A DNA stretch of 64,000 nt from Candidatus Magasanikbacteria bacterium UBA922 (GCA_002293825.1 DBDW01000009.1:26170-90169); one strand, 5' to 3'; positions 9,897 to 12,800 are shown, numbered from the stretch's first letter. Numbers and translations are program-made. Notes: generated from the letters alone by a model not told the origin.

Positions 9897-12800
9897 AGTG
9901 CTCGATATATTAGTACGCCTTGGCTATTCACCTAGCGCCTATCAACGTCATAGTCTCTGACGAATCTCAAACGAATATTAATCTTGAGAATAGCTTCGCG
10001 CTTAGATGCTTTCAGCGCTTATCTATGCCGAACTTAGCTACCCAGCAATGCATGGCACACAACTGGTACACCAGAGGTTCGTTCTTCCCGGTCCTCTCGT
10101 ACTAAGGAAGAGTTCTCTCAATATTCAGCGCCCACAGTAGATAGGAGACCGAACTGTCTCACGACGTTCTGAACCCAGCTCGCGTACCGCTTTAATTGGC
10201 GAACAGCCAAACCCTTGGGACCTTCTCCAGCCCCAGGATGCGATGAGCCGACATCGTACATATTCCTCACTTTCATGAGGGGTAGACTATATCTTCTTCT
10301 TGTCCTGGATCGTAGCTATCTCTACATACTGTAGAGACGTGCATAATCTCAGTTTGACGTGACAAGAGTCGGCGTGTTGCAATTCCGAATACTTCGGAAA
10401 AGCCTCCCCTTTCGGGTCAGTCGTTACGGGGTCATACGATCGAATGATCGTAGACTTCCCACGGTATTGCCGTTTCACTTTTCATGAATTACGGGTTCAC
10501 CGTTATAAGCCGATATATGATTCTCACTATCTAATTTAATAATTTTGACGAAAAAATTTGGGAAAACAATCGCTTGTTATGCACCCCGATATGTTAAGGT
10601 GCCAAACCGCGCCGTCGCTATGGACGCTTGGGCGCGATCAGCCTGTTATCCCCAGAGTAGCTTTTATCCGTTGAGCTTCCACCATCCTATGTTGAATGGT
10701 CGGATCACTAACTTCCACTTTCGTGACTGCTCGGGTGGTAGCCCTTGCAGTAAAGCCGACTTTTGCGTTTGCACGTCCAGTCCGATTTCCATCCGGACTA
10801 AGTCGACCTTTGTAAACGCCTCCGTTATGATTTGGGAGGCAACCGCCCCAGTTAAACTACCCACCAGACACTGTCTCCCGCACCCGATTCAGGGCACAAG
10901 ATTAGGGACATCGCATTACAAGGGTGGTATCTCACTGGCGCCGAAGCTCCCACCTATGCTGAACAAGTAAAACAATGTACCAATGTCAAGTTGTAGTAAA
11001 GCTTCATGGGGTCTTTTCGTCTAACTGCGGGTACGTCGCATCTTCACGACACTTGCATTTTCGCCGAGGACATGGTCAAGACAGTCTTCACATCGTTATG
11101 CCATTCGTGCGGGTCGGAACTCACCCGACAAGGAATTTCGCTACCTTAGGACGGTTATAGTTACCGCCGGCGTTCATCAGCGCTTCGGCTCAAGGCTTCG
11201 CATTGCTGCTAACCCCTCCCCTTAACGTTCTGACACTGGCCAGGCATCACCCCCTATACATCCACTTACGTGTTCGCAGGGAGCTGTGTTTTTGATAAAC
11301 AGTCGCATGAAGTCTTTTGTTGACCCGGTCAGATGACCGGGAGGCCTTATCCCGAAGTTACGGCCGCTTTTTTGCCTAGTTCCTTAACCATGTTTCTCTC
11401 GTTCGCCTTGGTCTACTCGACCTACCCACCTGTGTCGGTTTACGGTACAGTTTGATATTGCCTAGCGTTACGCTACTTTTCTAGGCACTCCGCTAACTTC
11501 TATTGACCTTGTCCGAAGACTCAGTCTCTCCCTTGCGGGACGTACATTACCTGAATACGCAGAAGCCGTTGAAATGCGCATAGCGCAACAAACAATACCA
11601 AGTGCAGGAATATTAACCTGCTCTTCCATCGACTACGCCCCCTTGCGAGGGCCTCACCTTAGGATTGACTAACCCAGGGACGATTCTCGTGGCCCTGGAA
11701 ACCTTGGGTTTTCGGCGTGAAGGACTCTCACCTTCATTATTGCTACTTGTGCCTGCATTCTCTCTTCTGAACGCTCCACCAAACCTCACGGTTCAGCTTC
11801 GCAGCTGTTCAGAATGCTCCTCTACCACTAGACTAACGTAAACGTTAGTATAATCCGCAGTTTCGGTATAACACTTAGCCCCGGTACATTTTCGGCGCGG
11901 AGACTCTTGACCAGTGAGCTATTACGCTTTCTTTAAAAGATGGCTGCTTCTAAGCCAACTTCCTGGTTGTTTAAGAATCAACACCACCTTTTACACTTAG
12001 TGTTAATTTAGGGACCTTAAATGGCGGTCTGGGCTGTTTCCCTTTAGACTGTGAAGCTTAGCCCCCACAGTCTGACTTGTGTATTCTTATACCTTTGGCA
12101 TTCGGAGTTTGATTGAGATTAGTACAGCAAGCTGCCTAAGACTCATCCAGTGCTCTACCACCAAAGTAAACATACACAGCTAGCCCCAAAGCTATTTCGA
12201 GGAGAACCAGCTATTACCGAGTTCGATAAGAATTTCTCTCCTATCCACAGATCATCCCCATGTGTTGCACAGCATGTGGGTTCGGTCCTCCCTTCGACTC
12301 TCGTCGAAGTTCAACCTGTCCATGGATTGCTCACCCGGCTTCGGGTCTACTATGTGCGACTTAACGCCCGTTAAGACTCGCTTTCGCTACGCCTCCGGAC
12401 TTTTTAATGTCCTTAAGCTTGCCACACACAGTAACTCGCAGGCTCATTCTTCAATAGGAACGCTGTCACCCTCATACCAAAAGGTATAGGGCTCCAACTC
12501 ATTGTAAGCACACGGTTTCAGGATCTATTTCACCGCCCTTCCGGGCTACTTTTCACCTTTCCCTCGCGGTACTGGTTCACTATCGATCACTGTTAATATT
12601 TAGTCTTATCGCATAGTCGCGACAGGTTCAGACGGAATTTCACGTGTTCCGCCCTACTCAGGAATGTAACACCACATAGAACATGTATTTCGTATACGGG
12701 ACTATCACCCTCTTTGGTTCTCCTTTCCAGGAGTATTCTACTATAGATATTCTCATGTAGCCGACATATCAGGTAGCCGACATTACATCCTACAACACCA

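Follow-up and report, generated by a model that had tools for sequence, protein, structure and literature searches.

The window, a 64,000-nt stretch of DNA (DBDW01000009.1:26170-90169) analysed here at its full length, carries on its minus strand, at positions 9891-13226, a bacterial 23S rRNA gene that matches the full Rfam model RF02541 with 2359 bits; a 5S rRNA gene adjoins it at 9713-9819. At 3336 nt, the 23S gene is ~400 nt longer than the RF02541 model, and a single 340-nt insert interrupts it exactly between the nucleotides equivalent to E. coli U2500 and C2501. We conclude that this insert is a subgroup IA group I intron without an open reading frame (ORF), in the 23S rRNA of a probable member of the Candidate Phyla Radiation (CPR), and that it very probably splices itself out in the usual two steps. 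The intron ends in A where the canonical 3'-terminal guanosine (omega-G) would stand. A first-pass annotation of the window, made from the sequence alone, had already proposed an ORF-less group I intron here. That proposal is supported, and the boundaries (10257-10596) and the U2500/C2501 junction given in it proved exact on alignment to E. coli 23S rRNA; it left the strand unstated (gene and intron lie on the minus strand) and overlooked the terminal A.

The insertion was located by global MAFFT alignment of the window 23S gene to that of E. coli (locus L001). In the sense of the RNA, the insert runs from window position 10596 (5' end) to 10257, so that intron nucleotide i corresponds to window position 10597 - i. 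Its exon flanks are the universal sequences GGUUUGGCACCU and CGAUGUCGGCUCAUC, and intron-less CPR 23S genes retain the continuous GGCACCU followed by CGAUGUCGG. The interrupted position is not a helix tip; it lies in the peptidyl-transferase centre, within its universally conserved, single-stranded core. Among the loci examined, the closest 23S gene is that of a Candidatus Uhrbacteria metagenome-assembled genome (L082; 88% identity over 899 nt), followed by those of other Patescibacteria. Because of this rRNA similarity, on which the assignment is based, the host is probably a CPR/Patescibacteria bacterium, in keeping with the CPR host that the first-pass annotation had assumed. The L082 gene has no insert at position 2500 and represents the intron-less allele; related hosts may thus have or lack the element, which fits an intron and not a lineage-wide expansion segment. 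The window 23S gene with its intron was found, identical, in two JGI metagenome assemblies (loci L242 and L243).

The two JGI contigs (sample 3300005689, Ga0074438_1000004, 112 kb; sample 3300014773, Ga0119928_1000012, 92 kb) share the 23S gene with the intron, the PNPase protein and the same neighbouring genes, and L242 is 100% identical to window positions 6333-20000 over 13.7 kb.

The insert contains the structural elements of a group I intron. In a search of 551 nt (10150-10700), the group I model RF00028 matched positions 10569-10264 on the minus strand end to end (model positions 1-253; 47.7 bits, E = 4.3e-11), and no group II or other Rfam family was found on the insert up to E = 10. 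Every helix pair from P1 to P10 was checked on the window sequence. P1 pairs GCACCU with GGGUGC and places a U2500.G wobble at the 5' splice site, P10 pairs CGAUGU with AUAUCG starting at C2501, and the guide segments for the two helices adjoin without a gap as one 12-nt stretch complementary to the ligated exons. P7 consists of GACUG/UAGUC with an A-U closing pair and a bulged C174. Next to the bulge lies the pair G175-C312 (window 10422/10285), which we take to be the guanosine-binding site by analogy with Tetrahymena G264-C311. The AAGAUAUAGUC element noticed in the first pass is present at 10285-10295, where it makes up J8/7 and the P7 3' strand; GUCAAACUGAG, which was called P4-like (intron nucleotides 239-249), lies in P8, and the real P4 is ACGGU/ACCGU (nucleotides 94-98 and 132-136). 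Two hairpins, P7.1 with a GAAA loop (nucleotides 181-190) and P7.2 (194-218), follow P7 and precede the 3' strand of P3. In the Michel-Westhof classification, such pairings between P7 and the P3 3' strand are said to mark subgroup IA, and the intron is assigned to subgroup IA because of them. P9.0 is AC/GU, the P9 loop is of the GAAA type, and the P2 loop is a GNRA tetraloop (GCGA). In thermodynamic folding, the minimum free energy (MFE) structure of the insert has -101.5 kcal/mol (z = -4.69), none of 100 shuffled sequences folds as well, and P2, P4-P6, P7.2, P8 and P9 emerge from it independently. The insert thus possesses the P3-P8 core with its P3/P7 pseudoknot, P1 with U.G, P10 and the P7 G-C pair, and departs from the group I pattern in its terminal base; omega-G is near-universal in group I introns and not strictly defining.

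For comparative analysis, relatives at the same site were collected by one scan each of genome and metagenome collections, using patterns that combine the 5' exon with the guide sequence. The metagenome pattern demanded the family's own guide. The genome pattern, GTTTGGCACCTN{2,25}GGGTG, was loose: 6 of the 120 matches listed were true site-2500 introns, and the others were mostly fortuitous matches or 23S genes that lack the intron, from lineages in which GGGGGTG stands downstream. Together, the matches listed contain 98 complete same-site introns, 82 of them distinct, of which 49 end in A (A-enders) and 33 in G (G-enders); all counts of distinct introns below refer to this set. Estimates of host diversity based on 800 nt of exon next to the intron are confounded by further introns there and are used only qualitatively. 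At locus L135, one 23S gene fragment has, besides its site-2500 intron, a second RF00028 match at another site upstream (446-912), an instance of several introns in one CPR 23S gene.

Covariation, measured on 60 distinct introns without an ORF that were aligned with MAFFT, supports the written-out structure, P1-P10 and the guanosine-binding pair included. Standard pairs fill 95.0% of the cells, compared with 32-44% in controls whose 3' partners were shifted by 1-3 columns, and changes on both sides occur in 47 of the 74 pairs; no observed covariation measure was attained in any of 500 shuffles. Compensatory changes are found in P2, P3, P5a, P7.1, P7.2, P8, P8a and P9, and none in P7. The putative guanosine-binding pair is kept in 59 of the 60 relatives, and P7 is invariant in all 44 aligned A-enders. 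The elements of the intron, all on the minus strand, are as follows.

10257-10596, minus: the whole group I intron, 340 nt, inserted at E. coli U2500/C2501; full-length RF00028 match.
10597-10602, minus: 5' exon strand of P1, GCACCU, with U2500 at 10597; pairs checked, U.G in 60/60 relatives.
10581-10592, minus: internal guide, AUAUCG followed by GGGUGC, of which nucleotides 5-10 form P10 and nucleotides 11-16 form P1; P1 paired in 100% and P10 in 97.7%.
10251-10256, minus: 3' exon strand of P10, CGAUGU, with C2501 at 10256; from alignment and pairing.
10563-10580, minus: P2 hairpin with the GNRA loop GCGA; 7/7 pairs changed on both sides, and in the MFE fold.
10514-10562, minus: optional P2.1-like peripheral region between P2 and P3; present in part of the family only, from alignments.
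10509-10513, minus: 5' strand of P3, UCGGC, pairing with 10369-10373; 100% paired, 4/5 pairs compensatory.
10461-10503, minus: P4-P5-P5a domain with A-rich J4/5 and J5/4; from pairing, covariation and the MFE fold.
10428-10460, minus: minimal P6/P6a hairpin, the site of the LAGLIDADG_2 ORF in long relatives; from anchor spacing.
10418-10424, minus: 5' strand of P7, A-C(bulge)-GACUG, with G 10422 in the presumed guanosine-binding pair; 44/44 A-enders, 59/60 of all.
10379-10416, minus: P7.1 (CCC-GAAA-GGG) and P7.2, the subgroup IA hallmark; 5/5 tested pairs compensatory, in the MFE and centroid folds.
10369-10373, minus: 3' strand of P3, GCCGA, closing the P3/P7 pseudoknot; from covariation.
10298-10367, minus: P8 with extensions P8a-c, containing GUCAAACUGAG; 12/13 tested pairs compensatory, in the MFE fold.
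10284-10297, minus: J8/7 and 3' strand of P7, AGAAGAUAUAGUCU, with C 10285 in the presumed guanosine-binding pair; from RF00028, pairing and covariation.
10282-10283, minus: 5' strand of P9.0, AC, pairing with 10258-10259; 49/49 A-enders, C-G to U-A covariation.
10265-10280, minus: P9 hairpin, CCUCA-UGAAAG-UGAGG, with a GAAA-type loop; 5/5 pairs compensatory.
10258-10259, minus: 3' strand of P9.0, GU, directly before the last intron nucleotide; from pairing and covariation.
10257, minus: terminal nucleotide (omega), A; in two assemblies and in 49/82 distinct relatives among the matches listed.

The optional region of ~49 nt at 10514-10562 (minus strand) has conserved UUUUCGU and UAGAUAG motifs around a variable hairpin.

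These data bear on whether the insert is instead an intervening sequence or expansion segment, either retained or excised by RNase III without ligation to leave a fragmented 23S rRNA. Such elements are known from CPR and other reduced bacteria, and the same 23S gene holds two other large hairpin insertions in domain I that bear no ribozyme signature. The 340-nt insert differs in having a complete, covarying group I core and a guide complementary to both exons, and it sits inside the single-stranded peptidyl-transferase core, not as a simple stem-loop at a helix tip. The first-pass annotation had named an expansion segment shared with related unspliced 23S rRNAs as the counter-case; L082, the close relative, has no insert. 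We therefore regard this explanation as highly improbable.

The domain I insertions themselves add 68 nt after E. coli position ~231 (a long hairpin with a UUCG loop; window ~12927-12994, minus strand) and 123 nt after ~272 (flanked by CCACAUA and UAUGUGG; window ~12763-12885, minus strand). Because neither has an Rfam match, they are read as expansion segments or RNase III-type intervening sequences. Elsewhere in the gene, the helices at E. coli 1414-1433, 1476-1488, 1530-1542, 1723-1745, 2132-2159 and 2798-2815 are shortened. There is no 16S rRNA gene upstream of the 23S gene (window 13227-16137), where protein ORFs and a tRNA-Leu gene come next, so that the 23S-5S pair is unlinked from 16S, at least within the window.

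At its 3' end, the intron reads GGAAUAUGUA before the exon sequence CGAUG. Its terminal nucleotide is taken as A because no other boundary gives the universal rRNA sequence and because C2501 is where P10 begins. The A is no error, given that the same sequence occurs in two assemblies and that 49 of the 82 distinct introns listed end in A. A-enders finish in GUA or, in four of them, in AUA. The base at -3 covaries with the third one that follows P7 (UAC/GUA, UGC/GUA, UAU/AUA), which defines a P9.0 of 2 bp immediately ahead of the final base. In L050 and L162, the same UAC...GUG architecture has G in the last place, which means that the A of the A-enders occupies the omega position.

Since most A-enders finish in GUA, a G is available at -3, and the true terminal nucleotide could in principle be this G, two bases upstream (after ..AUAUG, before UA), in which case the mature 23S rRNA would carry an extra UA between U2500 and C2501. 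This register is extremely unlikely: the four distinct AUA-enders have no G at -3, whose covariation with the base after P7 assigns it to P9.0; P10 pairs precisely with CGAUGU from C2501; intron-less CPR 23S genes have the canonical sequence (junction GGCACCUCGAUG); and L050 and L162 place their G at the very last position within the same architecture. Alternative splice registers in general, with a terminal G at -3 or a shifted 5' site, were rejected, as they give no canonical rRNA and conflict with the U.G pair, P10 and the AUA-enders.

The state of P9.0 differs between the two groups: it is intact in 49/49 A-enders and in 6/33 G-enders (Fisher 3e-16, ignoring kinship). The P7 context CGUAACGACUGACC and G175-C312 are alike in A-enders and G-enders, and in neither P7 nor J6/7 does any column change with the terminal base; the differences are confined to the P9.0 partners and some pairs of P8. 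A change linked to the terminal base that would hint at an adenosine-specific pocket was sought in the guanosine-binding pocket and J6/7, and none was found. Most G-enders (L010, L070, L131, L156, L158, L179, L199, L205 and others) finish in ..CCGACAG, with the variants CCGGCAG and UCGACAG, and CCGAC is complementary to GUCGG of the 3' exon (E. coli 2505-2509). This complementarity suggests that G-enders may form a hairpin across the 3' splice site instead of the P9.0 of the A-enders.

The 44 aligned A-enders are 56-100% identical in the core (median 68%), 96.5% of their cells pair, and 42 of the 74 pairs show compensatory changes. By these measures, A-enders are constrained ribozymes with no sign of decay. 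On a rough neighbour-joining tree of 261 core columns, the A and G states are interleaved, and parsimony counts ~5 switches between them.

No ORF longer than 63 aa exists inside the insert on either strand, in agreement with the first-pass statement that no reading frame of homing-endonuclease size is present. The 63-aa ORF itself (window 10287-10478, minus strand) contains YDPVTTDPKGEAF. The spurious antisense reading frames mentioned in the first pass were also recovered, as a mechanically called 141-aa ORF at 10545-10970 on the plus strand that overlaps the rRNA in antisense. Longer relatives of the intron (730-910 nt) carry an ORF, and those of L177, L238, L155 and L070 match LAGLIDADG_2 (PF03161) with E-values of 1e-38 to 1e-45; intact LAGLIDADG_2 genes occur in three A-ending relatives. 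Mapping by anchor motifs places the ORF in the P6 loop (L6), as the spacing from P4'/P6 to J6/7 is ~575 nt in ORF-bearing introns and 37 nt in the window intron. In L177, L238, L127, L193 and L205, the LAGLIDADG_2 frame runs from the P6 loop into P6'-J6/7-P7-P7.1, which encodes the conserved C-terminal ..DPVTTDPKGE.., so that RNA core and protein coding overlap in the ORF-bearing relatives. The 63-aa ORF of the window intron keeps the ..DPVTTDPKGE.. frame because the RNA core is conserved. The window intron lacks a homing endonuclease, no LAGLIDADG gene was seen beside the rRNA, and the intron is a derivative or relative of mobile introns with a LAGLIDADG_2 gene in the P6 loop.

We propose that the intron is removed by the standard two-step route. 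In the first step, free guanosine, bound at the unchanged P7 G-C pair, would attack the 5' splice site set by U2500.G in P1. In the second, the freed 3'-OH of U2500 would attack the phosphate between A340 and C2501, and the joined exons would restore the universal GGCACCU-CGAUGUC of the peptidyl-transferase centre. The 3' splice site would be held mainly by the 2-bp P9.0 and the 6-bp P10, not by a terminal base bound tightly in the G pocket, where A would fit poorly.

Several points weigh against this proposal. That the intron splices at all is argued from its conservation and from the essential site it occupies. The RF00028 score lies 2.3 bits under the Rfam gathering score (50), for which reason a search of the whole window at the gathering score does not list the model. 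The 49:33 ratio of A to G is a sample value among the matches listed, and the association of P9.0 with the omega base was computed without correction for phylogeny. In other group I introns, replacement of the terminal G prevents the exons from being ligated, as does G to C in tRNA introns of Patescibacteria (PMC13011429), from which omega-A is expected to weaken the second step; some compensation is then to be expected, for which the strict P9.0 naturally suggests itself. As to the Rfam score, six same-site relatives (L175, L135, L200, L147, L124 and L139) fared no better: three matched RF00028 with 44.3, 40.7 and 31.8 bits, and three gave no match at E <= 0.001. The low scores of the window intron and its relatives indicate that RF00028 under-scores the whole site-2500 family, which default annotation therefore misses.

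The loss of ligation in the related tRNA introns also speaks for a dead intron in a non-functional rRNA copy, in which the change from terminal G to A was the inactivating step; with 64 kb of the genome in view, a second rRNA copy could lie elsewhere. We consider this very improbable. The host 23S gene is otherwise intact over the full model and has its adjacent 5S gene, the A persists in 49 introns that are distinct and diverged and have compensatory changes and an invariant P7, some A-enders carry intact homing-endonuclease genes, and natural omega-A introns splice accurately elsewhere (PMC8146996). A different concern is that the core is intact and that efficient ligation in the cell nevertheless requires a helper, which might be a protein of the host or an endonuclease/maturase acting in trans, to offset the poor fit of omega-A in the G pocket. 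The expected weakening of the second step (PMC13011429) would fit such a need, as would the LAGLIDADG proteins encoded by related introns, some LAGLIDADG proteins being maturases (PMC11270868). We judge a required helper unlikely: the window intron is without an ORF, no LAGLIDADG gene was seen beside the rRNA, and the strict P9.0 together with P10 offers an RNA-only solution, as the two-step proposal assumes. Remoter is the possibility that A-enders use an adenosine nucleotide as cofactor. An adenosine-specific site, as engineered by Been and Perrotta (1991), reportedly needs a changed P7 pair. The P7 G-C pair is unchanged here, which argues against adenosine and makes guanosine the likelier cofactor.

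Natural group I introns without omega-G are on record elsewhere. Going by the title of Raghavan et al. 2007, a group I intron in the 23S rRNA of Coxiella reportedly self-splices without the canonical omega-G. As far as this title goes, the Coxiella burnetii intron Cbu.L1917 resembles the window intron in being a bacterial 23S group I intron without omega-G; it differs in its site (1917, not 2500) and in that it reportedly belongs to a single lineage and not to a large, diverse family. The mitochondrial ND5-717 intron of the sea anemone Stichodactyla haddoni has a natural omega-A, and RNA-seq reads span its ligated junction (PMC8146996). Unlike the window intron, it interrupts a mitochondrial protein gene, is inherited strictly vertically, holds genes in P8 and is not a mobile-type rRNA intron.

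In CPR bacteria, group I introns make up 45% of 968 insertions in 23S genes and are concentrated around the peptidyl-transferase centre; forms without an ORF and forms with a LAGLIDADG gene share sites (Tsurumaki et al. 2024, PMC11270868). The window intron agrees with them in host group, clustering in domain V, the presence of ORF-less and LAGLIDADG versions at one site and detection by Rfam, so that its kind is already known from that catalogue. The survey is silent on the terminal nucleotide: the word 'guanosine' is absent from it and 'terminal' occurs once, in another sense. The window intron also resembles the subgroup IA introns of organellar and bacterial large-subunit (LSU) rRNA, for example at L1931, L1951 and L2593, which share P7.1/P7.2, AAGAUAUAGUC at J8/7-P7 and LAGLIDADG genes in peripheral loops. 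Bacterial examples from outside the CPR are given by Haugen et al. 2007 (PMC1995217), whose listed non-CPR bacterial LSU intron sites do not include site 2500. The literature searched gave no account of a bacterial family in which omega-A is common, which is weak evidence given its incomplete coverage.

The intron itself is thus ordinary for CPR bacteria; what sets it apart is a terminal A coupled to an obligatory P9.0, a property common to a large family. In practice, the intron makes the 23S gene appear 340 nt too long, gives rise to spurious antisense ORFs and is missed, along with its relatives, at the default Rfam threshold. The 3'-terminal G has been treated as a catalytic nucleotide that all group I introns share, and the natural exceptions recorded are two isolated ones. 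In the bacterial family described here, which is large, diverse and partly mobile, A is a common terminal base, and every A-ender among the introns listed has an intact P9.0. We tentatively consider, as a possibility that is open to considerable doubt, that the A-ending site-2500 introns form a mechanistic subclass in which the 3' splice site is set by the obligatory P9.0 and P10 and not by the terminal base docking into the guanosine pocket, and in which A is favoured for suppressing hydrolysis at the 3' splice site and full-length circularization. If this were true, the advantage would lie in avoiding unligated exons, which both reactions leave behind and which would be costly in a 23S gene that is probably single-copy, and the ~5 switches between A and G would reflect a trade-off between two working solutions. 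The many natural sequence pairs that differ in A or G and in the presence of P9.0 offer material for studying how the second step selects its site and whether omega-A may protect ligation through less hydrolysis.

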